Assembly: GCA_031459625.1 (NCBI GenBank)
Contig: JAVKIH010000001.1
Coordinates: 117,187-181,186 of the forward strand
Origin: Candidatus Geohabitans tengchongensis
Lineage (GTDB): Bacteria; Sysuimicrobiota; Sysuimicrobiia; Sysuimicrobiales; Humicultoraceae
DNA length: 64,000 bases
Direction of reading: 5' to 3'
Of this stretch, positions 27,782 to 64,000 are shown one piece after another. A program made the position numbers and the translations under genes. The notes under the pieces are model-generated. The model was given only the letters and a program-made list of their open reading frames with translations. It searched no databases and had not been told where the DNA came from. The stretch's first letter is position 1; each line of letters opens with the position of its first letter.

Positions 27782-27784
27782 GAT

Positions 27785-29833: not shown

Positions 29834-29849
29834 TGACCAGTCATGGTCA
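29834..29849. promoter_or_regulatory. palindrome TGACCA-gtca-TGGTCA upstream of the M29 aminopeptidase gene
   Basis: Perfect 6-4-6 inverted repeat read from the sequence. Its half-site is related to the TetR operator at 32629. Confidence 0.25.
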
Positions 29850-30038
29850 GGGGGGGTCATGCAGGCAAGTGGCCTGGGAGAGGAGGTGAAGGAGATACCG
29901 CCCTCATCCATCGACGGTCACGCCCGCGGTTCCTGCGCCGCCATCCGGTGACGACGTGCGCCCCTGTCCTGTGACACGGCCGGCACGGCGGCAACGGGCC
30001 GCAGCCGGCTGCACCCCACCCGACCGAGGAGGTTCCCC

Positions 30039-32422: not shown

Positions 32423-32498
<76 letters not shown>

Positions 32499-44130: not shown

Positions 44131-44142
44131 GGGGGGCGGGAC

Positions 44143-47561: not shown

Positions 47562-47673
47562 CGGCCCGACAGGGAGCGGCGTGGGGAGGGTGAGGGGGAG
47601 GATCTCCGTGAGAGGGCAATTCGCCCTTCCGGCGAAGAATCCCGCCGTGGCCCTGCTCCAGGCACCGCCCAGG

Positions 47674-49495: not shown

Positions 49496-51193
49496 GTGCA
49501 CCCGTTGGTCCGCCCCCTCGGGGTCTGCTTCCTGCTGGCGGCGCTCCTCGCCGCCCCGGGCCCGGCGTCCGTCACCGGCTTCGGGACCGCCGCCACCGCT
49601 CCCGCCCTCGGGGGATCCCGCGACACGCTCGTCATCGGGATGAACCAGGAGCCGGACCGCCTGGGCCGCTTCTCGGTGATGTCTGCGGCGCGGGTGGTGG
49701 AGGGGGCGCTCTTCGCCCATATCGCCCCCTACACGGAGCGGTGGGTGCGCCGCCCCGTGCTGGTGGAGGACTTCCCGACGCTGGCCAACGGCCGCTGGCA
49801 GGTGCGGCCCGACGGGCGGATGCGCCTGGTGTGGCGGGTCCGCCGCGGCTTCCGCTGGCACGACGGGCGCCCGGTGACCGCGCTGGACTTCCGGTTCACC
49901 TTCGCCATGGTGCGCCACCCGGCCACCCCGGGGGTGAGCCGGGCGGTACTCGGCAAGGTGGAGCACGTCTTCGTCCCCAATCCGGACGACCCCTACACGC
50001 TGGTGGTGCAGTGGCGGGAGCGCTACCCCTTCGCCGGCACGCTGCCCTTCGGGGAGCCCGTGGTCTTCCCCCGCCACCGCCTGGAGGCGGCCTTCCTGCG
50101 CTCGCCGGCGCGCCTGCCGCTCGACCCCTACTGGCGCGCGCCGCTCGGCAACGGCCCCTACCGGTTCGTGGAGTGGGTGCCCGGCAGCCACATCCTGCTC
50201 GAGGCGGTGCCCCACTTCCCCCTTGGCGCCCCCCGCATCCGCCGCCTCCTCTTCCGCTTCGTGCCGGACGCCACGGTGCTGCAGACGCTGGCCATCGCCG
50301 GTCAGGTGGACGCCACCGAGATCAGCGGCTTCGGGGTGGAGCAGGCTCTGGAGGTGCAGCGGCGGAGCTCGGGGGCGGTGGCCCTCTTCACGCCGTCGCT
50401 GCGCTGGGAGCGCATCCTCTTCAACCTGGACGACCCCTGGCTGGCCGACCGGCGGGTGCGCTGGGCCATCGCCCACGCCATCGACCGCGAGGGCATCGTG
50501 CGCACGCTCTTCCAGGGACGCTACCCGCTGGCCCACACCTGGCTCGCCCCCCGCCACCCGGCCAGCAACCCGCACGTGCGCCGCTACGCCTACGACCCGG
50601 CGCGGGCCCGGCAGCTGCTGGCGGAGGCGGGCTTCACCCCCGGACCCGACGGCGTGCTGCGCGACGCGGCGGGGCGGCGGGTGGAGCTGACCATCATGTC
50701 CACCGCCGGGGTGGCCGTGCGGGAACAGATCGAGGAGATCGTCCAGGACCAGCTACGCGCCGTGGGCATCGCCCTGCGCATCGACAACCGCCCCGCGTCG
50801 GTGCTGCTGGGGCAGATCACCGTGCGGCGGCAGTTCCCGCACCTGGCGCTCTACTCCACCCTCTTCAGCCTCGAGTCCACGGGGTTCGAGGGGTTCCACA
50901 GCAGCCAGATCCCCTCGCCGGCCAACAACTGGGAGGGCTTCAACGTCATGGGGTGGCGCCACCCCGAGAACGACCGCCTGCTGGAGGCCATCACCACCGA
51001 GCTGGACGAGCGGCGCCGCCACGAGCTGCTGCGGCGGCAGCAGGCCATCTTCGCCGAGGAGCTGCCGGCGCTCCCGCTGTACTTCGTGCCGGCGATCGTC
51101 ACCGTGCCCCGCACGCTGCGCGGCGTGCGCCCCACCGGCCTCTTTGGCTCCTTCCTCACCTGGAACGCCTGGGAGTGGGCGTGGGCGGAGTGA
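49496..51193 (+). CDS. ABC transporter substrate-binding protein, family 5
   Basis: Signal peptide plus SBP_bac_5 architecture. GTG start. Confidence 0.85.
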   Translation: MHPLVRPLGVCFLLAALLAAPGPASVTGFGTAATAPALGGSRDTLVIGMNQEPDRLGRFSVMSAARVVEGALFAHIAPYTERWVRRPVLVEDFPTLANGRWQVRPDGRMRLVWRVRRGFRWHDGRPVTALDFRFTFAMVRHPATPGVSRAVLGKVEHVFVPNPDDPYTLVVQWRERYPFAGTLPFGEPVVFPRHRLEAAFLRSPARLPLDPYWRAPLGNGPYRFVEWVPGSHILLEAVPHFPLGAPRIRRLLFRFVPDATVLQTLAIAGQVDATEISGFGVEQALEVQRRSSGAVALFTPSLRWERILFNLDDPWLADRRVRWAIAHAIDREGIVRTLFQGRYPLAHTWLAPRHPASNPHVRRYAYDPARARQLLAEAGFTPGPDGVLRDAAGRRVELTIMSTAGVAVREQIEEIVQDQLRAVGIALRIDNRPASVLLGQITVRRQFPHLALYSTLFSLESTGFEGFHSSQIPSPANNWEGFNVMGWRHPENDRLLEAITTELDERRRHELLRRQQAIFAEELPALPLYFVPAIVTVPRTLRGVRPTGLFGSFLTWNAWEWAWAE

Positions 51194-51298
51194 CGGCGTG
51201 AGCCGCGTGAGGGGCGCGGGCGCCGCGCGCTGCCGTTGCGGCGGTGTCGCGGCCCTCATCCCGGCGGCGATCCCGTGAGCGCGCCCCCCACCGGCCAC

Positions 51299-52327
51299 AT
51301 GCTCCGCGAGATCCGGGAGCAGCCCCAGGTGGCCGCGCGCCTGCTGACCGAGGGGAGGGGGGAGGTGGCGGCGCTGGCTCGCGTCCTGCGCCGCCGTCAG
51401 CCCCCGTTCGTCGTCTTCGCGGCGCGCGGCTCCTCGGACAACGCCGCCGTCTATGGCAAGTACCTGGTGGAGACCCTGCTGGGGGTGCCGGCGGCTCTGG
51501 CCGCGCCCTCGACCGTGACGCTGTACCGGCGGTCCCTGCGGTTGCGCGGGGCCCTCGTGGTCGGCCTCTCCCAGTCGGGGGCGTCTCCCGACGTCGTCGA
51601 GTTCGTGGCGGCGGCACGCCGGGCCGGGGCGCTCGCGGTGGCGGTGACGAACCGCCCGCGCTCGCCGCTCGCGGACGCGGCCGCCCACGTCCTGTGGCTG
51701 CGCGCCGGCGCGGAGCGCAGCGTGGCGGCCACCAAGACCTTCCTGGCGCAGCTCCTGGTGCTGGCGATGCTCGTGGGAGCCTGGGGGCGGGTGGGGACGC
51801 TGCGCCGAGGTCTGGCGCGGGTGCCGGGGGCGGTGGAGGAGGCGCTGGCGCTGGACGCCCCCGTGACCGCGCTGGCGCGGCGGTGGCGCGACGCCACCGG
51901 CTGTCTCGTCACCGGCCGCGGCTACGGCTATCCCGTGGCGCTGGAGACCGCCCTCAAGCTGAAGGAGGCCTGCTACCTGATGGCGGAGGCGCTGTCGGGC
52001 GCGGACCTGCTCCACGGCCCGATCGCGCTGGCGGCACCGGGCGTGCCGGTGCTGCTCGTGGCCCTGCGGGGACCGTCGCTGGCGGCGCAGCGCGCGGTGA
52101 CGCGGCGGCTGGCCGCGCGCGGTGCCGAGGTCGCCCTGGTGACGGATGCGCGCCGCGCCGGCCCGCCTGCCGCCACGGTCCTCCCGCTCCCGCAGGACCT
52201 CCCCGAACCGCTGGCCGCCATCCCGGCAGCCGTCCCCGCCCAGCTGCTGGCGTGGCATTTGGCCGTCCAGCGCGGCATCGACCCCGACCGGCCCCGCGGG
52301 CTACGCAAGGTGACCCGCACCCGGTGA
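51299..52327 (+). CDS. SIS-domain sugar-phosphate isomerase/deaminase (GlmS-C-terminal-like, candidate NagB-II glucosamine-6-P deaminase)
   Basis: Two SIS modules (…VFAARGSSDNAAVYGKYLVE…; …GLSQSGASPDVVEFV…). No HTH. Sits immediately upstream of nagA. Confidence 0.7.
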   Translation: MLREIREQPQVAARLLTEGRGEVAALARVLRRRQPPFVVFAARGSSDNAAVYGKYLVETLLGVPAALAAPSTVTLYRRSLRLRGALVVGLSQSGASPDVVEFVAAARRAGALAVAVTNRPRSPLADAAAHVLWLRAGAERSVAATKTFLAQLLVLAMLVGAWGRVGTLRRGLARVPGAVEEALALDAPVTALARRWRDATGCLVTGRGYGYPVALETALKLKEACYLMAEALSGADLLHGPIALAAPGVPVLLVALRGPSLAAQRAVTRRLAARGAEVALVTDARRAGPPAATVLPLPQDLPEPLAAIPAAVPAQLLAWHLAVQRGIDPDRPRGLRKVTRTR

Positions 52328-52331
52328 CCCC

Positions 52332-53519
52332 GTGACCCCCGCGTCCCCATCCCGTCCGCTGCGCACGGCCGCCGGCCGCGTGCGCATCGCCGCCGGCCGC
52401 GTGGTGGCGCCGGACGGCGACCTCACGCCCGGCTGGGTGGAGGTGGCGGACGGCCGGATCGCCGTGGTGCAGGCGGGGTGGCCGGACGCGGCGGACGTGG
52501 CGCTGCCGCGCGGAGTCGTCCTGCCGGGGTTCGTCGACCTGCAGGTGAACGGCGCGGCCGGCGTGGACTTCCTCACGGTCGAAGACCCGGCCGCGCTGGA
52601 CCCGGCGCTCCGCCACCTCGCCGCCACGGGGGTGACGGGCTTCCTCCCCACCCTCATCAGCGCGCCCCTGCCGGTGGTGCGCCGCGCGCTGGAGGTGCTC
52701 AGCGCGGCGCGTGCCGCGGACCGGCCGGGGCCGCGCATCCTGGGCGTGCACCTGGAAGGGCCCTTCCTCGACCCCGCCCACGCCGGCGCCCACGACGTCG
52801 CCTGGCTGCAGGCGCCGTCGGTGGAGCTGGCCGAGGCACTCCTGGATGGCTCCGGCGCGGCGGTGCGCCTGGTGACGCTCGCGCCGGAGCTGCCCGGCGC
52901 AGGCGCGGTGATCGCCGCGCTGCGGGCGCGGGGAGTCGTCGTGGCTGCCGGCCACACCGGCGCCGACTTCGCCGCCGCCCGCGCGGCCTTCGACGCGGGC
53001 GTGGCGATGGTCACGCACCTGTTCAACGCCATGCGCCCGTTCCACCACCGCGAGCCGGGGCTCGTCGGTGCCGCCCTCCTGGACGGTCGGGTGTGCGCCT
53101 CGCTCATCCTCGACGACGTCCACCTCCATCCGGCCGCGGCGGCGCTGGCGATGCGGCTGCTCGGGCCGGAGCGGGCGGTCCTGGTGACGGACGCGGTGGC
53201 GGCGGCGGGCGCGCCTCCGGGGACCTACCGGCTGGGGACGCGCGAGGTCGTGGCACAGGACGGTGCGGTGCGTCTGCCCGACGGCACGCTGGCCGGCAGC
53301 CTCCTGACCATGGACGCGGCGGTGCGGCGCGCCTTGGCGCTCGGGGCGACCTGCCGCGACGTGGCCCGCATGGCGGCGCTGACCCCTGCAGCGCTCCTGG
53401 GGGTCCCGGCCGGCCTCCGCCCCGGGAACCCCGCGGACCTGGTCGTGCTCGATGAGGGTGGGCAGGTGGAGCTGACCCTGGTGGGCGGGGCCGTCGTCTT
53501 CCAGGCTGGCCGGTCCTGA
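52332..53519 (+). CDS. nagA: N-acetylglucosamine-6-phosphate deacetylase
   Basis: Amidohydrolase NagA motifs (GFVDLQVNG…HLEGPF…AAGHT…VTHLFNAM…). GTG start 4 nt after the upstream stop. Confidence 0.85.
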   Translation: MTPASPSRPLRTAAGRVRIAAGRVVAPDGDLTPGWVEVADGRIAVVQAGWPDAADVALPRGVVLPGFVDLQVNGAAGVDFLTVEDPAALDPALRHLAATGVTGFLPTLISAPLPVVRRALEVLSAARAADRPGPRILGVHLEGPFLDPAHAGAHDVAWLQAPSVELAEALLDGSGAAVRLVTLAPELPGAGAVIAALRARGVVVAAGHTGADFAAARAAFDAGVAMVTHLFNAMRPFHHREPGLVGAALLDGRVCASLILDDVHLHPAAAALAMRLLGPERAVLVTDAVAAAGAPPGTYRLGTREVVAQDGAVRLPDGTLAGSLLTMDAAVRRALALGATCRDVARMAALTPAALLGVPAGLRPGNPADLVVLDEGGQVELTLVGGAVVFQAGRS

Positions 53520-53650
53520 CGCGAGAGCCGCCTGCCGTCACCCGGGCGCACGGGGAAGCCCTCGCGGCGGACGGTCCCGTCGGTGGACCAGGGCGGGCGG
53601 CGGGCGGCGGCGAAGTGTGCTTGTACCGAGAGTCGCGGAGGTGACCGCAC

Positions 53651-54910
53651 ATGCGACGACGTCTCGTCGCCGGGGTACTCGTGGGGGTGCTGCTCGCGGG
53701 GCTTGGCGTCGCGGCCGCGCAGGCCCAGCAGCCCGTCAGGCTGACTTTCTGGAGCTGGCGGGTGGAGGACAAGTGGGCCTACGACCGGATGATCCGGGTC
53801 TTCCAGCAGCGCAACCCCGGGATCACCGTCGAGTTCATCCCCTACAAGGCCACCGAGTACAACACCATCCTCTCGTCGGCACTGACCGCCGGGAAGGGGC
53901 CCGACATCATCCACCTGCGGGCCTACGGCGGGCTGGAGACCTTCGCCGCGCCCGGCTTCATCCTCCCGCTGGACACGACGAAGGTGCCGGAGCTACGGCG
54001 CTTCCCGCTGCAGACGCTGGCGGGCGCGCGCAGCCGCAAGGACGGGCAGATCTACGGGGTGCCCTTCGCCACGCAGACCCTGGTCATCTACTACAACAAG
54101 AAGATCTTCGCGCAGCACAACCTCTCGGTGCCGCGCAGCTGGGACGAGTTTCTGACGGTGCTGCGCACCCTCAAGGAGAAGGGCGTCCTGCCCCTGGCCA
54201 ACGGCGGCAAGGAGGGGTGGACGCTCGAGGTGATGGCCGGCGTGCTCACCCCGAACTTCTACGGCGGCACGAGCTTCTACGAGGCGGTGATCCGCGGGCA
54301 CACCACCTTCAAGGACCCGAAGTTCACCGGCGCGCTGGCGAAGCTGCTGGAGCTGCGCCCGTACATGGCGGACGGGTTCATGGGGATCGACTACGCCACC
54401 ATGCAGCAGCTCTTCATCAACGAGCAGGCCGCTATGTTCATCGGCGGGTCGTGGGAGATCGGCTTCTTCAAGGCGCAGAACCGCAACCTCGACTTCGGCG
54501 TGTTCGCCGGCCCGCCGGAGAAGCCGGGGCAGGTGCCCTGGGTCTCCTCCTTCGCCGACGGGAACTACGGCATCAACGCCAAGACCCCGTACCCGGAGCA
54601 GGCGGTGAAGTTCATCCGCTTCACCGCCACGACCGAGTGGGGGCAGATGTTCACCGACCTGCTGGCCCAGCTCTCCGCCGTGCCGCGGGTCGTCGTGCGG
54701 GACCCCGTGCTGAAGCAGGTCCAGGCCCTCAACCGCAAGGCCACGCCCTACATCATGCTGGTCGGGTTCCGGTGGCAGACGCCGACGGGCTCCACCCTGC
54801 TGCAGAACGCCCTGCAGGCGATGCTGGCCGGCCGGATGACCCCTGTGCAGGTGGGGGAGGAGGTCACCCGCGGGCTGGCGAGCTGGTTTGAGCCCTTCCG
54901 CGGGCGGTAG
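53651..54910 (+). CDS. ABC transporter substrate-binding protein (carbohydrate family)
   Basis: Signal peptide plus SBP_bac_1-like sequence. Confidence 0.85.
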   Translation: MRRRLVAGVLVGVLLAGLGVAAAQAQQPVRLTFWSWRVEDKWAYDRMIRVFQQRNPGITVEFIPYKATEYNTILSSALTAGKGPDIIHLRAYGGLETFAAPGFILPLDTTKVPELRRFPLQTLAGARSRKDGQIYGVPFATQTLVIYYNKKIFAQHNLSVPRSWDEFLTVLRTLKEKGVLPLANGGKEGWTLEVMAGVLTPNFYGGTSFYEAVIRGHTTFKDPKFTGALAKLLELRPYMADGFMGIDYATMQQLFINEQAAMFIGGSWEIGFFKAQNRNLDFGVFAGPPEKPGQVPWVSSFADGNYGINAKTPYPEQAVKFIRFTATTEWGQMFTDLLAQLSAVPRVVVRDPVLKQVQALNRKATPYIMLVGFRWQTPTGSTLLQNALQAMLAGRMTPVQVGEEVTRGLASWFEPFRGR

Positions 54911-54982
54911 GGGCTCCCGGGGGGAGGGTCCGAACCGGGCCCGCCCCCCGGTCGCCGACCGGAGGTCGCCGCAGGCCGCGAC

Positions 54983-55999
54983 ATGACCGTCGGTCGCACC
55001 GGGGAGGAGCAGCCCGGGGCCCTCGCCGTCAGGGGGCGCGACACCGCGCGCGGGGAGGTGGCCCGGGCCCGCCGCCGACGCCTCAGCCTGCGGGCGACGC
55101 GGCGGCTGTGGCTCGTGGTCTTCCTGGGACCGGCGACCGCGCTGTTTGCGCTCTTCGTCACCTACCCGATCCTCTCGGCGCTGGCCTACAGCCTCTTCGC
55201 CTGGGAGGGCATCGGCCGCCGCGAGTTCATCGGGCTGGGCAACTTCGTCCGGCTCGTCCAGACCTTCCCCTACCCGCGCCTGTTGGTGAACGCCTTCTGG
55301 CACAACGTCCTGGTCTTCGTCCTGACCATGGTCGTCCAGAACGGGACGGCCCTGGGGCTGGCCCTGCTGCTGGCGCGGGATCCCTGGGGGGCGCGGGTGT
55401 ACCGGGTCATCTTCTTCCTCCCCGTGACCCTGTCGCTCGTCATCGTGGGCTTCCTGTGGCTGCTCTTCCTCAACCCCGTCTTTGGGGCGGTGAACAAGGT
55501 CCTGGCGCTGGCCGGGGTGGGCCACCTGGCCCGCCCCTGGCTGGGCGACCCGCACACGGCCCTGGTCACGCTCGTCCTGGTGAATGCCTGGCGCTGGCTG
55601 GGCTTCCCCACGCTGGTCTTCCTGGCGGCGATCCACGCCATCCCCGAGGAGTACCTGGAGGCGGCGCGCATCGACGGGGCCGGGGAGGGGGCGGCGGTGC
55701 GGCACGTCGTCCTGCCGCTGCTCGCCCCCGCGGTGACGATCATCGTGCTCCTGACCTTCCTTGGCGCCTTCAACTGGTTCGAGCTCCCCTACGTGATGCA
55801 GGGGGTCGCCGGCGCGCCCGACCGGGCCACCGACGTGCTGGGGCTGCTCTTCTACCGCACCGCCTTCGGCGAAGTGGACACCGGCCTGCAGGACATCGGC
55901 ATCGGCTCGGCCATCGCGGTGCTGATGTTCGCGCTGTTGGGGTCGGTCTCGGCGGTGGCCGCCGTCCTGCTGCGACGGCGGGAGGTGGAGTACGCGTGA
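54983..55999 (+). CDS. sugar ABC permease (MalF-like)
   Basis: Polytopic protein with an EAA loop. The first ~40 residues may be run-on upstream of the true start. Confidence 0.8.
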   Translation: MTVGRTGEEQPGALAVRGRDTARGEVARARRRRLSLRATRRLWLVVFLGPATALFALFVTYPILSALAYSLFAWEGIGRREFIGLGNFVRLVQTFPYPRLLVNAFWHNVLVFVLTMVVQNGTALGLALLLARDPWGARVYRVIFFLPVTLSLVIVGFLWLLFLNPVFGAVNKVLALAGVGHLARPWLGDPHTALVTLVLVNAWRWLGFPTLVFLAAIHAIPEEYLEAARIDGAGEGAAVRHVVLPLLAPAVTIIVLLTFLGAFNWFELPYVMQGVAGAPDRATDVLGLLFYRTAFGEVDTGLQDIGIGSAIAVLMFALLGSVSAVAAVLLRRREVEYA

Positions 56000-56850
56000 A
56001 CGTGGCGGCCGCGGGCCTGCGCCGGAGGCGCCCGCGCGGCTGGGCGTGGGCCGGGCAGCTGGTGCTGACTGCCAACGCCCTGCTCGTCCTGGCGCCCATG
56101 GTCATCATGGTCCTCTCCGCCTTCAAGACCACGCGGGAGATCTTCCAGCACCCCTTCGGGCTGCCGCAGGCCTGGCGCCTGGAGAACTTCGCCCGGGTGT
56201 GGGTGGAGGCCCACTTCGCCCGGTACGTGCAGAACAGCCTGATCGTCACGGCGGCCGCGGTGCTGCTGATCCTCGTGCTGGGCGCCATGGCGGGCTACGC
56301 GCTCGGGCGGTTCCGCTTCGGCGGGAACGACCTCCTCTACCTGTACTTCCTCAGCGGGCTGATGCTGCCGCTGCGGCTGGGGGTGATCCCGCTCTTCCTG
56401 CTGATGCGCAACCTCCACCTCCTCGACACGCTGTGGGCCCTGATCCTCATCTACGCCGCCTCGGGGCTGCCGAGCGCCGTCTTCATCCTCACGGGGTTCT
56501 TCCGCACCCTGCCCCAGGACCTGGACAGCGCCGCGCGCATCGACGGCGCCGGGGAGTGGCGCATCTTCACCACCATCATGCTGCCGCTGGTGCGCCCGGC
56601 CCTGGTGATCGTGGCCATCTACAACATCATCCCGGTGTGGAACGACGTCTTCTTCCCGCTGGTCTTCATCCAGTCGGACGCGCGCAAGACGCTGCCGCTG
56701 GGGATGACCACCTTCTTCGGGCAGTACTTCACCGACTGGGCCACGCTCTTCGCCGGCCTCACCCTGGCCGCGCTCCCGGTGATCGCCACCTACGCGCTCC
56801 TCTCCGGGCAGTTCATCCGGGGCCTCACCGCCGGCGCCGTGAAGGGGTGA
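55996..56850 (+). CDS. sugar ABC permease (MalG-like)
   Basis: GTGA overlap with the upstream gene. C-terminus …GQFIRGLTAGAVKG. Confidence 0.85.
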   Translation: MNVAAAGLRRRRPRGWAWAGQLVLTANALLVLAPMVIMVLSAFKTTREIFQHPFGLPQAWRLENFARVWVEAHFARYVQNSLIVTAAAVLLILVLGAMAGYALGRFRFGGNDLLYLYFLSGLMLPLRLGVIPLFLLMRNLHLLDTLWALILIYAASGLPSAVFILTGFFRTLPQDLDSAARIDGAGEWRIFTTIMLPLVRPALVIVAIYNIIPVWNDVFFPLVFIQSDARKTLPLGMTTFFGQYFTDWATLFAGLTLAALPVIATYALLSGQFIRGLTAGAVKG

Positions 56851-57539
56851 GGGCGCTCCACCCCGTCCTCGAGCGGGTGCGTGGCGGGCTGGTGGTCTCC
56901 TGCCAGGCCCGGCCGGGGCACCCGTTCCGCGACCCCGCGCGCATCCTGGCGATGGCCGAGGCGGCCGCCGCCGGCGGGGCCGCGGGCCTGCGCCTGGCCG
57001 GGGAGGAGGACATCCGCGTCGTGCGGGCAGCCCTCGACCTGCCCATCATCGGCCTGCGCAAGGTGACCTCCCCCGGCTCCCCTGTTTACATCACGCCCAC
57101 CCTCGAGGACGCGCGCGCGGTCGTGGAAGCCGGAGCCGACCTGGTGGCGGTGGACGCCACCGCCCGGCCGCGTCCCGGCGGGGTGGAGGCGGCGGCGCTG
57201 ATCGCCGCGGTGCGCGCGCAGCTGGGCCGCCCGGTCCTGGCGGACGTCTCCACGGTGGAGGAGGGTATCGCCGCAGCCGCCGCCGGGGCCGACGCGGTGG
57301 CCACGACGCTCGCGGGGTACACGGGGCCGGGGGCGCCGCCGGGGGAACCGGACCTGGCGCTGGTCGAGGTGCTGGTCGGGCGGGTCGAGGTGCCGGTGAT
57401 CGCAGAAGGCCGCTATCGGACCCCGGAGGAGGTGGCGCGGGCGTTTCAGGCGGGAGCGTTCGCCGTCGTGGTGGGGCGGGCCATCACCGACCCCGTCCAC
57501 CTCACGCGCCGGTTCGTCGCCGCCACGCCGCGCCGATAG
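56847..57539 (+). CDS. nanE: N-acylglucosamine/mannosamine-6-phosphate 2-epimerase
   Basis: ~230 aa. NanE-like sequence (…GGLVVSCQA…PIIGLRK…DLVAVDAT…VPVIAEGR…). GTG start overlaps the upstream stop. Confidence 0.75.
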   Translation: MRALHPVLERVRGGLVVSCQARPGHPFRDPARILAMAEAAAAGGAAGLRLAGEEDIRVVRAALDLPIIGLRKVTSPGSPVYITPTLEDARAVVEAGADLVAVDATARPRPGGVEAAALIAAVRAQLGRPVLADVSTVEEGIAAAAAGADAVATTLAGYTGPGAPPGEPDLALVEVLVGRVEVPVIAEGRYRTPEEVARAFQAGAFAVVVGRAITDPVHLTRRFVAATPRR

Positions 57540-57548
57540 GGAAACCCG

Positions 57549-58595
57549 ATGGGCCGCATCCGGACGGGGAGCGTCCCCCTCTTCCTCGGGGTCGACGGCG
57601 GTGCCACCTCCACGAGCTGCGTCGTCGCCGACCTGCACGGCCGCGTGGTGGGTGTGGGCCAGGCCGGGCCGGTGGACCACCTCTACCGCCCCGCGGGGCG
57701 GCGGCAGACCCGCGAGGCGCTGCGCCAGGCGGTCGGGGAGGCGCTGCGGGGATCGGGAGCGCGCCGCATGCGCGCCGCCGTGGCCGGCCTGACGGGCTTG
57801 GAACCGGCCTCGCCGGAGTCGGCGCTGGCCACGAGACTCCTCAGCGAGGCGGCACGGGCACAGGGCGCGCAGGTGGAGGCGCTGCGGGTGACGTGGGACG
57901 TCGAGGTGGCGTTCGCCGGGGCCACGGTGGGACGCCCCGGGGTGATGGTGGTGGCGGGCACGGGCTCGGTGGCCTTCGGTCGCGACGCTGCCGGGCGGAC
58001 GGCGCGCGCCGGCGGCTACGGGTTCCTGATCGACGACGCCGGCGGCGGCGTGGCCATCGGGCGGGCGGCGCTGGCCGCGGCGCTGCGCGCGCAGGACGGC
58101 CGCGGGCCGGCGACGCGCCTGGAGGAGGCGGTGGCGGCGCGGCTGGGCCCGTGGCCGGCCATCCGGCGGGCGGTGTACGGGGAGGAGGGGCGCAGGGTGC
58201 TGGCCTCGCTCGTCCCCCTGGTGGTGCAGGCGGCGCGGCGCGGGGACGTGCAGGCACAGGCCATCCTGGGGGAGGCGGGGCAGGCGCTCGCCACCCTGGC
58301 CCTGGCCGTCGTGCGCCGCCTGGACCTGCCGCGGGCCGACCTCTACCCGGTGGGCGGCGTCTTCGAGTCGGGCCCTCTTCTCCTCGCCCCGCTGCGCGCC
58401 GCCCTGGCCGAGGCCGGCGTGCCGGTGCGCCTGCGGCGGCCGGTCCTCCCGCCGGCGCTGGGAGCGGTGCTGCTGGCCATGGACCTGGCGGGCATGGCCC
58501 CGCCGCCGGCAACGGTGCGGCGGCTGCGCCGAGCCCGGATGGCCAAGCGCGCCCGCGCCGGCCCACCGTCCCGCGCCGACCTGTGGTCCCGCTGA
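57549..58595 (+). CDS. N-acetylglucosamine kinase, BadF/BadG/BcrA/BcrD ATPase family
   Basis: ASKHA-fold motifs (LGVDGGATST…; VVAGTGSVAFG…; GYGFLIDDAGGG). The tail is low-complexity run-on. Confidence 0.75.
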   Translation: MGRIRTGSVPLFLGVDGGATSTSCVVADLHGRVVGVGQAGPVDHLYRPAGRRQTREALRQAVGEALRGSGARRMRAAVAGLTGLEPASPESALATRLLSEAARAQGAQVEALRVTWDVEVAFAGATVGRPGVMVVAGTGSVAFGRDAAGRTARAGGYGFLIDDAGGGVAIGRAALAAALRAQDGRGPATRLEEAVAARLGPWPAIRRAVYGEEGRRVLASLVPLVVQAARRGDVQAQAILGEAGQALATLALAVVRRLDLPRADLYPVGGVFESGPLLLAPLRAALAEAGVPVRLRRPVLPPALGAVLLAMDLAGMAPPPATVRRLRRARMAKRARAGPPSRADLWSR

Positions 58596-59512
58596 CGCAA
58601 CGGCCTCCCGGCGAGCGCCAGCCGGACCGCCCCGCCGCCGAACGCCACCCTGACTGACCCGCCGGCGAGCGCCACCCGGATCGAGCCTCCTGCGCGGCGC
58701 AGGCGGCGGCGGGCCTCCTCCGCGTCCGTGCCGAGCCGCGCCATCACGATCGCCGTCTTCACCTCGCCGCCCGCCGCCGCCAGCAGGCGCGCAGCGGTGC
58801 GCGGCGGCACCCCGGCGGCCTGCGCCACGATCGCGCGGGCCCGTGCGCGCAGCTTGGCGTTCAGCGGCCGCACCCCCACCATCAGGTCGCCGTAGACGTG
58901 CCCCAGCCGCACCATCGTGGCCGTGCTCAGCATGTTCAGGACGAGCTTCTGCGCCGTGCCGGCCTTGAGGCGCGTCGAGCCGCGCACCGCCTCCTCGCCG
59001 GTCTGGGGCACGATGGCGATGTTGGCCGCGCGCACGAGCGGCGTGCGCGGGCGGGCCGCCAGCGCCACCGTCGTGGCCCCCCGACGGCGTGCCTCGGCCA
59101 GCGCGGCCACGGTGAAGGGGGTGGAGCCGCTGGCGGCGATGCCGACCACCACGTCGCGCCGTCCCACCCGCAGGCGCCGCATCTCCCGCCGCCCCAGCGC
59201 CGCGTCGTCCTCGAGCGGCGAGGTGGCCTCCACGGTGGCGCCGATGCCGCCGGCCACGACCGCCTGCACTGTCTCCGGGCGGACCCCGAAGGTGGGCGGG
59301 ACCTCCAGGGCGTCCAGCAGGCCGATGCGCCCGCTGGTGCCGGCGCCCACGTAGATCAGCCGCCCGCCGCGTCGCAACGCCGCCACGGCGGCGCGCACCG
59401 CCCGCGCCACCTGCGGCAGGACGCGCTCCACGGCCGGCAGCACCCGGCGGTCCTCCTCGTGGAGGCGGCGCAGCAGGGCCGGCAGCGGCAGCGCGTCGAG
59501 GGGGACGGTCAC
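58343..59512 (-). CDS. murQ: N-acetylmuramic acid 6-phosphate etherase
   Basis: SIS-domain MurQ signature (…LIYVGAGTSGRIG…; …VGIAASGSTPFT…; …TRLKAGTAQKLVLNMLST…). ORF is ~80 aa longer than typical MurQ, with a low-complexity tail. Confidence 0.8.
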   Translation of the reverse strand: MTVPLDALPLPALLRRLHEEDRRVLPAVERVLPQVARAVRAAVAALRRGGRLIYVGAGTSGRIGLLDALEVPPTFGVRPETVQAVVAGGIGATVEATSPLEDDAALGRREMRRLRVGRRDVVVGIAASGSTPFTVAALAEARRRGATTVALAARPRTPLVRAANIAIVPQTGEEAVRGSTRLKAGTAQKLVLNMLSTATMVRLGHVYGDLMVGVRPLNAKLRARARAIVAQAAGVPPRTAARLLAAAGGEVKTAIVMARLGTDAEEARRRLRRAGGSIRVALAGGSVRVAFGGGAVRLALAGRPLRQRDHRSARDGGPARARLAIRARRSRRTVAGGGAMPARSMASSTAPSAGGRTGRRRRTGTPASARAARSGARRRGPDSKTPPTG

Positions 59513-59519
59513 GGAGCGG

Positions 59520-60695
59520 TCACGGCGGGTTGGGCGGGTAGATGGCCCCGAGCACGACGGGGTGGCGCGCGCCGGTGGCGCGCGGGATGTTGGTGGCCAG
59601 CCCCAGGAGGGCGTCGTGCCCGAGGATGGCGAAGGCCACCGCCTCCTTGGCGTCGTCGTCCACCCCGAACTCGGAGGCGCGCCGCACCGCCCGCGGGGCC
59701 AGCCGCCGGCGCAGCCGCTCCATCAAGGTGCGGTTGTGCACCCCGCCGCCGCTGACGATGACCTCGTGCACGTCGTGGCGCGGGAAGATGAACCGCTCGT
59801 AGTTCAGCACGATGGCCTCGGCGGTGAGCGCCGTCACCGTGGCCAGGGCGTCGTGGGGGGAGAGGTCCTTGCGCCGCGCCCGGGCCAGCACCGCCTCGGC
59901 GTAGGCACGCCCGTAGCGCTCCCGGCCGGTGCTCTTGGGGGGCGGGGCGATGATGTACTCGTCCCACAGCAGGTCGCCGAGCAGGGTCTCGTCCACGGTG
60001 CCCTGGGCGGCGGCCTGGCCGTCCGCGTCGAGGGCGCGCCCGAGCAGCATCTCCGCCAGCAGGTCGATGACCATGTTCCCCGGGCCGGTGTCGAAGGCGA
60101 GGACCTCTTCCGGCCCGGCTCCCGCCGGCAGCACCGTGGCGTTGGCGATGCCGCCGATGTTCTGGGCGATGCGCGTGCGCGTCCGGTCGGCGAAGAGGAC
60201 GAAGTCCGCGTACGGCACGAGCGGGGCGCCCTGACCGCCGGCGGCCATGTCCCGGGCGCGGAAGTGGGCCACCGTGCACGTCCCCGTGCGCTCGGCGATG
60301 ACCGCCGGCTCCCCGATCTGCAGCGTCGCCCCCGGCTGCCCGGGGCCGGGCGGGATGTGGTAGACCGTCTGCCCGTGCGAGGCGATGAGGTCCACCTCGC
60401 CCACGCGCGCCATCACCCCCAGCGCCGCCTCGGCGAAGACCTCCCCCACCGCCACGTTCAGCTCGCACACCTCGCGCGTCGAGCCCGCGGCGGTGAGGGC
60501 CAGCACCCGTTCCCGCACCTCCGGCGGGTAGGGGTAGGAGGCGGTGGCCAGCGTGGCCACCCACCGCGCCCGGTCCTTCCCCTCCACCCGCACCGCCGCG
60601 GCGTCCACCGCGTCGGCCGAGGTGCCGGAGATGAGCCCGATGACGGTGCGCGCCGGCTTGCGGGCGATGGCGTCCAGGACGCGGGCCAGCCGCAT
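59520..60695 (-). CDS. anmK: anhydro-N-acetylmuramic acid kinase
   Basis: AnmK N-terminus (IGLISGTSADAVDAAAV…) and ASKHA-fold body. ATG at 60695 chosen; upstream run-on ORF discarded. Confidence 0.85.
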   Translation of the reverse strand: MRLARVLDAIARKPARTVIGLISGTSADAVDAAAVRVEGKDRARWVATLATASYPYPPEVRERVLALTAAGSTREVCELNVAVGEVFAEAALGVMARVGEVDLIASHGQTVYHIPPGPGQPGATLQIGEPAVIAERTGTCTVAHFRARDMAAGGQGAPLVPYADFVLFADRTRTRIAQNIGGIANATVLPAGAGPEEVLAFDTGPGNMVIDLLAEMLLGRALDADGQAAAQGTVDETLLGDLLWDEYIIAPPPKSTGRERYGRAYAEAVLARARRKDLSPHDALATVTALTAEAIVLNYERFIFPRHDVHEVIVSGGGVHNRTLMERLRRRLAPRAVRRASEFGVDDDAKEAVAFAILGHDALLGLATNIPRATGARHPVVLGAIYPPNPP

Positions 60696-61813
60696 CAGCG
60701 CAGCGCCCCGTAGAGGGCGTCGTGGAAGGGGCCGCGGAAGGTCTCGATGGCCGGGTCGACGCGGGGGTGGACGCGGTTGGTCAGGAGGACGACGACGAGG
60801 GCGCGGTCCGGGTCGACGACGATGGAGGTGCCGGTGAAGCCGGTGTGGCCGAAGGCGCGTGGCGAGGCGCCCTCGCCCATGAAGGTCGTGCCCGTGCGGG
60901 TGCGCCACCCGAGGCCGCACCCGCTGCCCAGTGCGGCCCCGGTATGGTCGCGCACCGCCTCGGCAACGGTGGATGGAGCGAGCAGCCGCCGTCCCGCCAG
61001 CACGCCCCCGTCGAGCATGGCCTGTCCCAGGCGCGCCACCTCCTCGGCCGGTCCGAAGAGCCCGGCGTGCCCGGCCACACCGCCGAAGGCGTAGTGGGCA
61101 TTGCCGTCGTGGACCTCCCCCACGATGACCTCCCTACGCCACGGGAAGCCCGGCCCCTCCTCCCCCGCCTGCGCCTCTTCGTAGCCATTGCCCAGCTCGG
61201 TCGCCGCACAGGTCCGCCGCCACGACGGCGGCGGGCGGAAGCGCGTCCGCCGCCACCCCAGCACCGGGGCCACGTGCGCGGCCAGGTAGCGGTCGAGCGG
61301 CAGGCCGCTGGCCAGCCGCACCAGTTCGCCCAGCAGGATGAACCCCAGGTCGCTGTACTCGAAGCGCGTCCCCGGCGGCGCCGCCGGCGGTGTGGCGCAG
61401 ATCTGGGCGACCGCCGCCTCCGCTGTGGCGGCGCGCAGGTAGAGGCGGATCCACGCCGGCAGCCCGGAGGTGTGGGTGAGCAGGTGGCGCACCGTGACCG
61501 CCCCCTTGCCGGCCTGCGCGAAGGCGGGCAGCCAGGCCGCCACGGGACGGTCGATGTCCAGCGCCCCGCGCTCCCACAGCTGCAGCACCGCCGTGGCGGT
61601 GACGGGCTTGGTGAGCGAGGCCAGGTCGAAGAGGGTCCCGGCGGTCATGGGCCGCCGGTGGGGGACGACCTGCGCCCAGCCGAAGGCTCGGTGGTGGACC
61701 ACCCGCCCGTCCTGGCGCACGTGCAGGACCGCCCCCGGGAAGACGCCGCGCGCGATGGCCTCCGCGAGCAGGGCCTCCACCGGGGTCAGGCGTCCGTCGC
61801 GCCGCGCCGTCAC
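60695..61813 (-). CDS. serine hydrolase, beta-lactamase/transpeptidase-like fold (class C beta-lactamase / D-aminopeptidase family)
   Basis: SxxK motif 'SLTKP'. ~372 aa. GTG start forms a GTGA overlap with the upstream permease stop. Confidence 0.8.
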   Translation of the reverse strand: MTARRDGRLTPVEALLAEAIARGVFPGAVLHVRQDGRVVHHRAFGWAQVVPHRRPMTAGTLFDLASLTKPVTATAVLQLWERGALDIDRPVAAWLPAFAQAGKGAVTVRHLLTHTSGLPAWIRLYLRAATAEAAVAQICATPPAAPPGTRFEYSDLGFILLGELVRLASGLPLDRYLAAHVAPVLGWRRTRFRPPPSWRRTCAATELGNGYEEAQAGEEGPGFPWRREVIVGEVHDGNAHYAFGGVAGHAGLFGPAEEVARLGQAMLDGGVLAGRRLLAPSTVAEAVRDHTGAALGSGCGLGWRTRTGTTFMGEGASPRAFGHTGFTGTSIVVDPDRALVVVLLTNRVHPRVDPAIETFRGPFHDALYGALR

Positions 61814-62715
61814 GCCGCCGTCCAGGTGGGGCGCAGGCGCGGGTCGAGGAGCTCCTGCAGCGCGTCGCCGAGCAGGTTGATCCCCAGCACGGCCACGACG
61901 ATGGCCAGCCCCGGGCCCAGCGTCGGCCAGGGGCTCACCTCCAGGTAATTGCGCCCCTCGCTGACCATCAGCCCCAGCGACGGATACGGCGGCTGGGTGC
62001 CCAGGCCGAGGAAGCTCAGCGCCGACTCGAAGAGGATGGCCGTGGCCAGGTTGATGGTGGCCTGCACCAGGACCGGCGTGGCGGCGTTGGGCATGACGTG
62101 GCGGGTGACGATGCGCGACGGGCGCTGCCCCAGCGCCCGCGCCGCCTCCACGTAGGCCTGCGCCGTCACCACCAGGGTGGGGCCGCGGGCGATGCGGGCG
62201 AAGATGGGGACGTAGACCAGGCCGATGGCCAGCACGGTGGTGGCGATCCCCGGGCCCAGGATCACCACGATGGTGATGGCCAGCAGCAGCACGGGGAAGG
62301 CGAAGGCCACGTCCATCACCCGCATGATGACGGTGTCGACGGCTCCGCCGACGAAGCCGGCGACCACCCCGAGGGTGCCGCCCAGCGCCAGGGCGAAGGC
62401 CACGGCCAGCGCCGCCACCGCCAGCGAGGTGCGGTAGCCCCACAGGATGCGGCTGAGCAGGTCGCGGCCGTAGAAGTCGGTGCCGAGCAGGTAGGGGCGG
62501 CCGGGCGGCGCGAAGCGCGCCTCCGGGTGCATCTCGGTCACCGGGAAGGGGGCGAGCACGGGCGCGAGCAGCGCCGCGGCGAGGACCGCCAGGAGCAGCG
62601 CCGCCCCCGTGGCGGCTTTCGGGGCGCGGCGGACCAGGCGCAGGGGGCCGGCGGACGGCCGGACGGCCCTCAGGGCGGGGCGGGAGGCGGCGCCCTCAGC
62701 CATGCCCTCAGCCAT
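61810..62715 (-). CDS. ABC permease, DppC/OppC-like
   Basis: Six TM segments. EAA-region conservation. Confidence 0.85.
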   Translation of the reverse strand: MAEGMAEGAASRPALRAVRPSAGPLRLVRRAPKAATGAALLLAVLAAALLAPVLAPFPVTEMHPEARFAPPGRPYLLGTDFYGRDLLSRILWGYRTSLAVAALAVAFALALGGTLGVVAGFVGGAVDTVIMRVMDVAFAFPVLLLAITIVVILGPGIATTVLAIGLVYVPIFARIARGPTLVVTAQAYVEAARALGQRPSRIVTRHVMPNAATPVLVQATINLATAILFESALSFLGLGTQPPYPSLGLMVSEGRNYLEVSPWPTLGPGLAIVVAVLGINLLGDALQELLDPRLRPTWTAA

Positions 62716-63655
62716 AGCGGATGCGCGGGTCGAGCAGGACGTAGGCCAGGTCCACCGCCAGGTTGATCAGGACGAAGAGGCCGGTGACCAGCAGCACCAC
62801 CGCCTGCAGCACCGGGTAGTCCCGCTGCACGATGGCCAGCAGCCCCAGCCGCCCCAACCCCGGGATGGCGAAGACCTGCTCCACCACGATCGACCCCCCC
62901 ACCAGGTAGCCGGCCACGATCCCGATGAGGGTCACCACGGGGATGAGGGCGTTCGGCAGCATGTGCCGGCGCACCACCGCCACCTCCCCCAGCCCCTTGG
63001 CCCGGGCCACGGTGACGTACTCCTCCCCGCGCACCCCCACCAGGGACGCCCGCACCATGCGGGCGATGGCCGCCGCGTTGGGCACGGCCAGCGTGAGCGC
63101 CGGGAGGAAGAAGCCCCAGAGGTTGCCCAGCGGGTCGCGCCACAGCGGCGGGTAGGCCAGCACGGGGAACCAGCGCAGGTGGACGCTGAAGGTGAGGATG
63201 AGCACCGCCCCCACCCAGAAGGCCGGCAGGGAGAGGCCGAGCAGCGTGAAGGTCTGCATCGCCGCGTCGGCCAGGCGGGAGCGCGTGGTGCCGGCGGCGA
63301 CCCCCAGCGGCAGGGCCAGGGCCACGGCCAGCCCCAGCCCGTAGGCGGCCAGCTCCAGCGTGTAGGGGAGGGCCTCCCCCACCAGGTCGGCGATGGGACG
63401 GCCGGTGCGCACCGAGGTGCCCAGGTCCCCGCGCAGCAGCCGTCCCATCCACCGCAGGTACTGGACCGGGACCGGCCGGTCGAGTCCCAGGTCGCGGCGC
63501 ACGCGGGCCAGCTGCTCGGGATCGGTGGACTCGAAGCCCAGCAGCACCTGCGCCGGGTCCCCGGGGATGAGGTGCATCAACCCGAAGACCAGCATGGAGA
63601 TGACCAGCAGGACGGGGAGGAGCAGGAGGAGGCGCTGGGCCAGGTAGCGTTGCAT
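62708..63655 (-). CDS. ABC permease, DppB/OppB-like
   Basis: MQRYLAQRLLLLLPVLLVISMLVFGLMHLIPGDP N-terminus is typical of OppB. Confidence 0.85.
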   Translation of the reverse strand: MQRYLAQRLLLLLPVLLVISMLVFGLMHLIPGDPAQVLLGFESTDPEQLARVRRDLGLDRPVPVQYLRWMGRLLRGDLGTSVRTGRPIADLVGEALPYTLELAAYGLGLAVALALPLGVAAGTTRSRLADAAMQTFTLLGLSLPAFWVGAVLILTFSVHLRWFPVLAYPPLWRDPLGNLWGFFLPALTLAVPNAAAIARMVRASLVGVRGEEYVTVARAKGLGEVAVVRRHMLPNALIPVVTLIGIVAGYLVGGSIVVEQVFAIPGLGRLGLLAIVQRDYPVLQAVVLLVTGLFVLINLAVDLAYVLLDPRIRYG

Positions 63656-63706
63656 GGGACGCGCGCGGGCCCCGGTCCACGGACCGCGACCGCGACCCGC
63701 GCGGGC

Positions 63707-64000
63707 CTACCGGCTCGCCGTCACCCAGCTCTCCGCCAGCGGGGCCATCGAGCGCGTGGAGGTGAGGACGAACCCCTGCAGCTGCGTGCGCATGACCGCG
63801 AAGAGGTCGGCGTAGGCGATGAAGAGGAAGGGCACCTGGTCGGCGATGCGCTGCTGGGCCTGGACGTAGAGCTGGACGCGGCGCCTGGGGTCCGGGGTGG
63901 CGCGCGCCTGGTCCAGGAGCTGGTCCAGCGTCGGGTCCTTGAACTTGAAGACGTTCGTGCTGCCGGTGGAGTGGAGGTGGCGGTACAGGTGGATGTCGGG
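63707..64000 (-). CDS. ABC substrate-binding protein, family 5 (C-terminal end; gene continues beyond the window)
   Basis: Minus-strand translation ends …VMRTQLQGFVLTSTRSMAPLAESWVTASR*, typical of an SBP_bac_5 C-terminus. Confidence 0.6.
   Translation of the reverse strand, partial: PDIHLYRHLHSTGSTNVFKFKDPTLDQLLDQARATPDPRRRVQLYVQAQQRIADQVPFLFIAYADLFAVMRTQLQGFVLTSTRSMAPLAESWVTASR

Follow-up and report, generated by a model that had tools for sequence, protein, structure and literature searches.

A predicted two-operon cell-wall amino-sugar salvage locus linking a Dpp-type ABC importer to an AmiE/PBP4B-like hydrolase in Candidatus Geohabitans tengchongensis

Introduction

Peptidoglycan recycling is known mainly from a few Proteobacteria and Firmicutes, and the uptake routes used in other lineages are poorly known. 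Here we describe a predicted cell-wall amino-sugar salvage locus at positions 49,496 to 64,000 of a 64,000-nt stretch of DNA (hereafter the window; contig JAVKIH010000001.1 of assembly GCA_031459625.1, positions 117,187 to 181,186) from Candidatus Geohabitans tengchongensis. The locus consists of two convergent operons. The minus-strand operon encodes a family-5 substrate-binding protein (SBP5) and two Dpp-type permeases of an ATP-binding cassette (ABC) importer, together with a beta-lactamase-fold hydrolase resembling AmiE and PBP4B and the N-acetylmuramic acid (MurNAc) enzymes AnmK and MurQ, and the plus-strand genes encode a second ABC transporter and enzymes predicted to act on N-acetylglucosamine (GlcNAc) and related sugars. 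A preliminary description, made from the window sequence, had read the region as a locus for the salvage of peptidoglycan and amino sugars that includes two types of ABC transporter. This reading holds, and the combination of two transporter types with MurNAc enzymes recurs in unrelated loci (e.g., L107, L122, L133 and L138, where L-numbers label the genome and metagenome loci compared with the window).

In Bacillus subtilis, MurNAc salvage is encoded by the murQ-murR-murP-amiE-nagZ-namZ operon, in which AmiE acts as an exo-MurNAc-L-Ala amidase (PMC8054146); AmiE belongs to family PF00144 and to the murR regulon (PMC10653849). B. subtilis secretes AmiE, NagZ and NamZ and takes up free MurNAc by means of the phosphotransferase system (PTS) transporter MurP. 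The window likewise holds MurQ, an AmiE-like PF00144 enzyme and NamZ, and the family-wide association of that enzyme with NagZ, NamZ and MurQ is the same, but the window encodes no PTS, MurR or NagZ, and its AmiE-like enzyme lacks a signal peptide and lies within an operon for an ABC importer and AnmK. The AmpG-AmpD-NagZ-AnmK-MurQ pathway of Escherichia coli involves the same chemistry, leading from 1,6-anhydroMurNAc (anhMurNAc)-peptide through anhMurNAc and MurNAc-6-P to GlcNAc-6-P and NagA, but the major facilitator superfamily permease AmpG and the Amidase_2 enzyme AmpD are not found in the locus described here, where an ABC system would handle uptake and a YfeW-like enzyme is the proposed agent of de-peptidation. 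In E. coli K-12, yfeW sits in a murQ-murP-yfeW operon (PMC5061867), so that YfeW (PBP4B), to which the window hydrolase is 35% identical over its full length (E 3e-54), is likewise linked to murQ; the E. coli protein has an N-terminal hydrophobic leader. The de-peptidation role proposed for the window hydrolase is that of AmpD in E. coli and of the secreted AmiE in B. subtilis.

A peptide-type ABC importer of anhydromuropeptides has been described in Agrobacterium tumefaciens, where YejBEF and the family-5 binding protein YepA take the place of AmpG (PMC9790009). YepA, an orphan binding protein reported to be exclusive to the Alphaproteobacteria, makes use of a broad-specificity transporter that is not its own, and it acts together with AmpD and NagZ (PMC9790009). 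The transporter type is like that of the window, but here the binding protein and permeases share one operon with the catabolic enzymes, and the arrangement occurs in Armatimonadota, Actinomycetota and other lineages. Family-5 binding proteins also serve peptidoglycan-fragment recycling in the E. coli MppA-OppBCDF and B. subtilis DppE systems. Both are detectable relatives of the minus-strand SBP5 (103 and 86 bits, respectively), but they bind sugar-free peptide, and the window protein is no closer to them than to DppA (149 bits).

The plus-strand enzymes find a parallel in the Shewanella-type NagK (BadF/G family, NF046058) and NagB-II (SIS family, NF046059), which represent the same two non-orthologous replacements of ROK-type NagK and NagB-I, with NagA adjacent; the window proteins score under the equivalog cut-offs of these models, and the window kinase has NanE as its partner and, of the solved structures, resembles MurK more closely. 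In Listeria monocytogenes, lmo2795-nanE serves the use of free N-acetylmannosamine (ManNAc), with no growth on sialic acid (PMC10667646). In place of the PTS, ROK protein and RpiR activator of the Listeria system, the window has a BadF/G kinase and an ABC importer of the CUT1 type; unlike Listeria, loci related to the window hold NanE inside MurQ-AnmK operons. The parts of the present locus are therefore known; we found no description of a peptide-type ABC importer being paired with a putative beta-lactamase-fold amidase of apparently cytoplasmic location, and a limited literature search returned no account of an operon-encoded Dpp-type importer together with a signal-less AmiE/PBP4B-type enzyme, AnmK and MurQ. 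The features of interest are the hydrolase, its coupling to an importer and the recurrent NanE, their functions being predicted throughout.

Results

The minus-strand operon and the proposed salvage route

Genes were called from frame plots of third-position GC (GC3) in the window, which has a GC content of 74%, and the called frames were checked against Pfam and NCBIfam profiles, with family assignments at E-values of 1e-29 to 1e-143, far beyond chance. All genes named in the preliminary description were recovered where it had placed them. The minus-strand operon reads, in order, SBP5, DppB, DppC, AmiE/PBP4B-like hydrolase, AnmK and MurQ, and we treat these genes as one transcription unit because their boundaries overlap or are separated by gaps of at most about 50 nt. 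Only the 3' end of the SBP5 gene lies in the window (63707-64000), encoding the C-terminal 97 aa of a protein that runs beyond the window end; in the parent contig (L001, 8390-9949) the full protein spans 519 aa, with a signal peptide and a PF00496 domain. Two permease genes complete the membrane components of the importer: a DppB/OppB-like permease (62708-63655; PF00528 and BPD_transp_1_N), resembling NikB, GsiC and Opp models of NCBIfam below cut-off, and a DppC/OppC-like permease (61810-62715; PF00528 and OppC_N), resembling Opp1C, Opp4C and DdpC models, all below cut-off.

The 372-aa hydrolase (60695-61813; PF00144, 262 bits; no signal peptide) is followed by AnmK, the anhMurNAc kinase (59520-60695; NF007148, 478 bits against a cut-off of 387; PF03702, 340 bits), which passes the equivalog threshold over its full length and whose start overlaps the hydrolase stop. 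The last gene encodes MurQ, the MurNAc-6-P etherase (58343-59512), with 361 bits to NF003915 (cut-off 168), 332 bits to NF009222 (cut-off 255) and a borderline score to TIGR00274 (301.1 against 302).

These gene families and their arrangement point to a two-operon salvage route that we consider likely. A Dpp-type ABC importer would take up MurNAc- or anhMurNAc-peptides from wall turnover, and the signal-less beta-lactamase-fold enzyme would strip the stem peptide off the sugar in the cytoplasm. AnmK would then open and phosphorylate anhMurNAc to MurNAc-6-P, and MurQ would remove the lactyl ether to yield GlcNAc-6-P, which NagA and NagB-II of the plus strand would convert to fructose-6-P. The plus-strand module of CUT1 transporter, NanE and kinase would feed free N-acetylhexosamines into the GlcNAc-6-P pool; ManNAc could enter via NanE, and GlcNAc or MurNAc probably via the kinase. 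A secreted NamZ and a second CUT1 system encoded elsewhere in the window (16.9-23 kb) would supply the pathway from outside. The Dpp importer and the cytoplasmic hydrolase would, in this arrangement, stand in for AmpG and AmpD.

The AmiE/PBP4B-like hydrolase

The hydrolase, which the preliminary description had called a serine hydrolase without assigning it a part in the pathway, would provide the de-peptidation step that the route needs; the earlier interpretation of the locus, which is supported in part, had missed this step. The best NCBIfam model for the protein is PBP4B, at 180 bits, followed by a model at 84 bits, and its motifs S66/K69 (SxxK), Y153-S154-D155 (YSD) and H323-T324-G325 (HTG) are invariant in an alignment that includes YfeW. 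Kinship with AmiE was drawn from the shared Pfam family (PMC10653849) and from the comparison with E. coli YfeW.

To survey the family, we collected 80 homologous loci from species-representative genomes (Acidobacteriota, Gemmatimonadota, Planctomycetota, Bacteroidota and other phyla) and counted neighbouring genes within 10 kb. NamZ is encoded in 50 of the 80 loci, usually 70-280 nt downstream of the hydrolase gene, and NagZ in 21, where it lies directly upstream and is often fused in frame; MurQ (18/80) and a MurK-like kinase (17/80) are also recurrent. These neighbours identify the family as one of peptidoglycan salvage. The fusions of NagZ to AmiE-like domains match the architecture of RmNag3, a published NagZ-beta-lactamase-domain enzyme (PMC6987092). 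In 14 loci (L016, L021, L022, L028, L030, L034, L036, L040, L045, L061, L064, L066, L078 and L087), the AmiE-like reading frame remains open for about 600-840 codons upstream across a NagZ-matching region, indicating that NagZ-AmiE fusions bearing signal peptides are encoded in Gemmatimonadota, Bacteroidota, Acidobacteriota and further groups.

Signal peptides were called with an N-terminal hydrophobicity scan, using E. coli YfeW as a control; the control has a clearly hydrophobic leader, yet its score fell just under the scan threshold. Of the 80 homologues from other phyla, 59 have a hydrophobic N-terminus; such a segment was absent from the window hydrolase, from all 120 of its closest homologues (Armatimonadota clade) and from all 18 homologues adjoining SBP5-DppBC, AnmK or MurQ in metagenome loci. 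The split is clean: family members linked to NagZ or NamZ look secreted, and those linked to a transporter look cytoplasmic. Lacking a signal peptide, the window hydrolase is therefore probably a cytoplasmic enzyme, and apparent family membership together with pathway logic suggests that it is probably a (anhydro)MurNAc-L-Ala amidase.

Recurrence of the importer-enzyme linkage

The order SBP5-DppB-DppC-hydrolase-(kinase)-AnmK/MurQ is conserved in the Armatimonadota loci L006, L007 and L009, at 53-60% identity, and in a metagenome-assembled genome (MAG; L014), and the cultured actinomycete Georgenia sp. 1P01AC (NZ_CP154855.1, around 1.74-1.76 Mb) carries SBP5-DppB-DppC-AnmK-DppD-DppF-hydrolase. 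In L007, MurQ is directly followed by a HAD-family hydrolase gene (13187-13849) that is not found in the window; it might encode a MupP-like MurNAc-6-P phosphatase, hinting at an anabolic branch.

Scanning metagenomes with a minus-strand SBP5 alignment as query yielded a further set of 80 loci, in 29 of which MurQ, AnmK or the hydrolase adjoins SBP5-DppBC. The 29 linked loci cluster at SBP5 identities of at least about 32%, and those below about 31% are mostly generic Dpp systems. The linked genes vary in order: L110 reads SBP5-B-C-hydrolase-MurK-MurQ-AnmK; in L138 a hydrolase gene precedes, at some distance, SBP5-B-C, a gene of no assigned family, and then MurQ-AnmK-DppD-DppF-NagA; and L112 has AnmK, hydrolase, DppF and DppD divergent from SBP5-B-C. 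In L122 and L133, NagA is divergent from SBP5-B-C-MurQ-AnmK-hydrolase-MurK-NanE, and NagA flanks the operon in L103, L105, L120, L122, L133 and L138. L151 encodes a mandelate-racemase-family protein (MR/MLE enolase superfamily; 13425-14552) between AnmK and the AmiE-like gene. The mandelate-racemase family includes the L-Ala-D/L-Glu epimerases of murein-peptide catabolism, and the L151 enzyme may be one of these. Taken together, these gene linkages provide strong context evidence that the importer is dedicated to a cargo with both MurNAc and peptide.

Two other cargoes were considered. Family-5 binding proteins for chitobiose, cellobiose or sialic acid exist, so that members of the family are known to carry sugars, and the Dpp-type transporter might import peptide-free anhMurNAc, MurNAc or GlcNAc-anhMurNAc, with the hydrolase acting, for instance, as an esterase or de-O-acetylase. 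Free sugar would suffice for AnmK and MurQ, and the solved structures most like the hydrolase are carboxylesterases; a sequence search of solved structures found no close relative of the hydrolase/YfeW family. We nevertheless judge this alternative rather unlikely, given that the hydrolase is nearly always in the operon and appears to belong to the AmiE/YfeW family with its links to NagZ and NamZ, that the possible stem-dipeptide enzyme of L151 points to a peptide-bearing cargo, and that the SBP5 sequence is closest to peptide binders.

Import of free stem peptides only, in the manner of MppA-Opp and DppE, appears quite improbable. Under this explanation the hydrolase would trim peptides as a D-aminopeptidase or DD-carboxypeptidase, AnmK and MurQ would merely be co-regulated, and sugars would enter via the CUT1 systems, which do adjoin NamZ and the kinase. 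The resemblance of SBP5 to DppA and weak matches of the hydrolase to the NCBIfam D-aminopeptidase and AmpH models are in keeping with it, as is the DD-carboxypeptidase, rather than amidase, activity for which PMC5061867 cites Vega and Ayala (2006) on E. coli PBP4B. Against this, AnmK or MurQ is interleaved among the transporter genes in Georgenia, L138 and L112, more tightly than co-regulation needs, the characterised family member AmiE is an amidase (PMC8054146), and no other amidase is present to free anhMurNAc. Sequence searches of solved structures with SBP5, the CUT1 binding protein (SBP1) and the hydrolase did not discriminate substrates.

ATPase genes of the importers

Neither the Dpp-type nor the plus-strand CUT1 transporter has its own ATPase gene in the locus. 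No DppD/F gene was found in the minus-strand operon, in the window or within 10 kb past the window end, where the parent contig carries a divergent second SBP5 and a Liv-type amino-acid ABC system. DppD/F genes are present inside the homologous operons of Georgenia, L112, L138, L140 and L151, and in an Opp supercluster on contig JAVKJR010000006.1 (L097) of the same MAG. We infer that ATPases act in trans, with DppD/F supplied from the other contig and a MalK-type protein encoded at 18713-19768 of the window. All three Dpp-type permease sets seen in this MAG outside the Opp supercluster are without DppD/F; one of them, at 25892-31142 of the window, comprises SBP5, DppB and DppC followed by an M29 aminopeptidase, again with no ATPase genes.

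MurQ and the integrity of the locus

The MurQ core (about aa 1-285) is 48% identical to E. coli MurQ, with no frameshift, and E. coli Glu83 and Glu114, which we take to be the catalytic residues, align with Glu70 and Glu101 of the window protein, so that both are kept. The protein is nonetheless longer than the usual 300 aa or so, at 389 aa against 294-325 aa in relatives: the stop codon is missing at its usual place, and an Arg/Ala-rich tail (58343-58650) is read antisense through the 3' end of the plus-strand kinase gene, giving a convergent overlap of 253 nt. The kinase is itself about 30 aa longer at its C-terminal end than its relatives (58500-58595). The MAG gene annotation omitted murQ altogether.

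An exact-protein look-up located the region on two other assemblies, GCA_031458815.1 (JAVKJR010000014.1) and GCA_031459055.1, both Armatimonadota MAGs. Over 52.7-64 kb the window DNA is 99.99% identical to L001 and L003 across common spans, and 100% identical to L002 save for one insertion in the latter. This insertion in L002 (GCA_031459055.1; 11973-12072, against window 61684-61810) adds some 227 bases to the interval separating dppC from the hydrolase gene: the initial 127 nt of the latter are repeated, and the other 100 bases are unmatched. It may reflect either a strain-level indel or an artefact of assembly. We considered and rejected an assembly error as the source of the missing murQ stop, the DNA of the murQ region being 99.9-100% identical in three assemblies.

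A decaying locus, in which murQ is a pseudogene and the MurNAc branch inactive, would account for the lost stop, the overlap with the kinase gene and the omission of murQ from the automated annotation. We find this very improbable: besides the intact core and retained glutamates, the murQ frame has a GC3 of 0.93, the near-identity across three assemblies extends to this region, and a C-terminal extension need not inactivate the enzyme.

The plus-strand amino-sugar genes

The plus strand encodes an SIS-type protein, NagA, a CUT1 sugar transporter, NanE and a BadF/BadG-type kinase. The double-SIS protein (51296-52327, in a reading frame open from 51236; two PF01380 domains) probably starts at an ATG at 51296 and measures 343-363 aa depending on the start. 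Its best model is NagB-II (NF046059, 267 bits), ahead of the C-terminal half of GlmS (227 bits), and it is probably a GlcN-6-P deaminase of the NagB-II type. That it might be a GlmS fragment in need of a glutaminase domain, which it does not have, was rejected: the gene stands alone, scores higher with NagB-II than with GlmS and abuts nagA. Singling out the SIS-type deaminase as unusual proved unwarranted, as the family is established and has its own NCBIfam model. NagA, the GlcNAc-6-P deacetylase (52332-53519; TIGR00221, 270.7 bits against a cut-off of 225.65), starts 4 nt past the SIS gene, and the same SIS-NagA pairing occurs in L012, where an SIS gene 44% identical to that of the window belongs to a NanE-GntR-SIS-NagA cluster.

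Downstream lie the CUT1 binding protein SBP1 (SBP_bac_1, with signal peptide; 53651-54910; PF01547, 133 bits), a MalF/UgpA-like permease (54983-55999; PF00528; NCBIfam GlcT/UgpA/MalF-like) and a MalG/UgpE-like permease (55996-56850; PF00528; GlcU/UgpE-like), which was called in the parent MAG and overlaps both neighbours by 4 nt. The chitin-oligosaccharide binders NagB2 and NagB1 are among the best solved relatives of SBP1, which is 76% identical to SBP1 of L011 and 46% identical to SBP1 of L107, encoded between AnmK and NamZ. These genes are followed by NanE, the ManNAc-6-P 2-epimerase (56847-57539; PF04131, 181 bits; NF002231, 266.6 bits against a cut-off of 189), and by a MurK/NagK-like N-acetylhexosamine kinase of the BadF/BadG family (57549-58595; PF01869, BcrAD_BadFG, 119 bits against a cut-off of 31.5). 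The earlier label of GlcNAc kinase was too specific for the latter. Its best solved relative is the MurNAc/GlcNAc kinase MurK (8zo3, 93 bits), it scores 94 bits with the NagK_SO3507 model against a cut-off of 370, and by gene context it is most closely tied to NanE. Its relatives are split between NanE-linked and MurQ-linked contexts: it shares 54% identity with a kinase encoded beside NanE in L011 and 44% with one encoded within the MurQ operon of L006. The pairing of NanE with a BadF/G kinase is found in L011, L012, L122 and L133, and the five genes from the CUT1 binding protein to the kinase form a conserved N-acetylhexosamine module.

A Pfam scan of the GC3-supported reading frames of the window detected no NanA (DHDPS family), and none occurs in L011 or L012. 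We therefore rejected a sialic-acid locus, there being no NanA lyase in the window or in the related NanE loci. NanE without sialic-acid lyase serves ManNAc catabolism in Listeria (PMC10667646), so that the absence of NanA fits such a role here. The preliminary description had found NanE outside a sialic-acid context remarkable; the Listeria precedent takes away part of this novelty, whereas the recurrence of NanE in MurQ operons (L122 and L133) is real. On the evidence of these two loci, and of the CUT1 system between AnmK and NamZ in L107, the link between NanE, kinase and MurNAc salvage is recurrent. Salvage of ManNAc from wall-linked polymers is one reading of NanE in MurQ operons.

Alternatively, the CUT1-NanE-kinase-NagA-NagB-II genes may form an independent nutrient pathway for ManNAc or GlcNAc that faces the MurQ operon by coincidence, a possibility that we regard as unlikely. 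The module occurs alone in L011, L012 combines it with a different transporter and a GntR regulator, and the Listeria pathway operates apart from sialic acid. Set against these are the MurK-like kinase and NanE within the MurQ-AnmK operons of L122 and L133, the orthologous CUT1 system of L107, the flanking NagA genes in six loci named above, and the requirement for NagA and NagB in catabolism of the MurQ product.

The first plus-strand gene of the locus encodes a second, orphan SBP5 (49496-51193; 565 aa, signal peptide; PF00496, SBP_bac_5, 203 bits), far below every NCBIfam equivalog cut-off. Its relatives, which share 55-70% identity with it and include a paralogue of the same MAG, lie in Opp superclusters of the form [SBP5-B-C]n-SBP5-DppD-DppF and do not adjoin nagA or nagB. 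The preliminary description had listed the protein among the amino-sugar genes. As a conserved amino-sugar binder it was rejected, since four context look-ups at 55-66% identity all returned generic Opp superclusters. To regard it as an orphan of the MppA or YepA kind would be speculative, and it is doubtful that it belongs with the amino-sugar genes. Its gene starts 7 nt beyond the end of one for a FadD11-like acyl-CoA ligase (47581-49488); the plus-strand operon may start at the ligase gene, which has no obvious tie to amino-sugar metabolism.

The NamZ cluster and candidate regulators

A secreted exo-beta-N-acetylmuramidase, NamZ, is encoded on the minus strand at 21742-22989 (reading frame to 23229; NamZ_N 243 bits, NamZ_C 122 bits); its real start is probably a TTG at 22989, followed by a hydrophobic leader. 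Beside it lies the second CUT1 sugar ABC system (plus strand, 16961-21663), with an SBP1 bearing a twin-arginine (TAT) signal, two permeases and a MalK/UgpC-type ATPase (the 18713-19768 gene) that might serve the CUT1 system starting at 53651 as well. In L007, where NamZ is convergent with the SBP5-...-MurQ operon, the gene immediately upstream of that operon encodes an SBP1 that shares 43% identity with SBP1 of this cluster (16961-18553). A PMT_2 glycosyltransferase gene and a UDG-family gene accompany NamZ both in the window (23648-25854) and in L007 (16860-19015), at about 60% identity. Because L007 unites SBP1, the MurQ operon, NamZ, PMT_2 and UDG, we regard the two window regions as parts of one ancestral neighbourhood. 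In this genome the MurQ operon is shifted by about 35 kb from the conserved NamZ/PMT_2/UDG neighbourhood.

The same Pfam scan of GC3-supported reading frames found no RpiR/MurR, ROK/NagC or GntR-UTRA/NagR regulator and no GH3 NagZ in the window, bearing out the absence of a MurR-, NagC- or NagR-type regulator noted earlier, and the suggested search of the flanking DNA found no regulator past the window end in the parent contig. Related loci do carry candidates: a MurR-like gene is divergent in L140, L144, L146, L151 and L164, and L105 and L107 encode a GntR/UTRA regulator. A search for DasR/NagR-type operators gave one match, located within a gene, against 1.2 expected; four upstream regions have no palindrome in common, promoter and terminator scans stayed at background level, and an Rfam scan of the window detected three tRNA genes only (16795-16869, 25849-25920 and 32423-32495).

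Elsewhere in the window, genes for a sigma-70-family factor, a LytS-type histidine kinase (PF06580) and a LytTR response regulator (12750-15008) lie upstream of an SDR gene, an alpha/beta hydrolase gene and the NamZ-adjacent sugar ABC operon, and are possible regulators. Just upstream of the locus, genes for a pyridine-nucleotide-disulphide oxidoreductase and a metallo-beta-lactamase-fold protein lie between those of two small proteins with cNMP-binding domains (44131-44577 and 46183-46650), in which no DNA-binding domain was detected.

Discussion

Several observations weigh against the salvage route proposed here. In sequence, the minus-strand SBP5 resembles dipeptide binders more than it does MppA, which binds murein tripeptide, so that orthology to MppA is not supported, and it reaches no curated NCBIfam cut-off. 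Its plus-strand counterpart resembles a generic peptide binder. The hydrolase falls well below the PBP4B equivalog cut-off of 385 bits, E. coli PBP4B has, as cited above, been reported as a DD-carboxypeptidase and not an amidase, and the absence of a signal peptide was called by a crude hydrophobicity scan. The score of the SIS protein is below the NagB-II cut-off of 430 bits. No NagZ is encoded nearby, so that disaccharide-peptides, should they be the substrate, would have to lose their GlcNAc elsewhere. MurQ bears an abnormal tail of about 100 aa, and the CUT1-NanE-kinase module also stands alone, so that its link to peptidoglycan is not obligatory. Set beside the conserved linkages, these points leave the two-operon route, with Dpp-type import of (anhydro)MurNAc-peptides and cytoplasmic de-peptidation, the reading that we favour.

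A broader reading, which we advance only tentatively and with somewhat less than even confidence, is that Dpp-type importers of (anhydro)MurNAc-peptides and cytoplasmic AmiE/PBP4B-type amidases are widespread replacements for AmpG and AmpD, in Armatimonadota, at least one actinomycete and other lineages, and that NanE and the MurK-like kinase are integral to the pathway. A ManNAc-type sugar of wall-linked polymers, or a manno-configured intermediate, would then be salvaged along with MurNAc.

Should the proposal fail, the locus would be an ordinary amino-sugar catabolic cluster. If it is true, ABC import of muropeptides combined with a cytoplasmic amidase other than AmpD would be a solution found repeatedly among deep-branching and Gram-positive lineages, and a clear substrate hypothesis that can be tested would be at hand for the cultured Georgenia sp. 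1P01AC. NanE in MurQ operons would reveal an unrecognised tie between peptidoglycan salvage and ManNAc-containing wall polymers, and the PBP4B/YfeW family would gain a physiological role.

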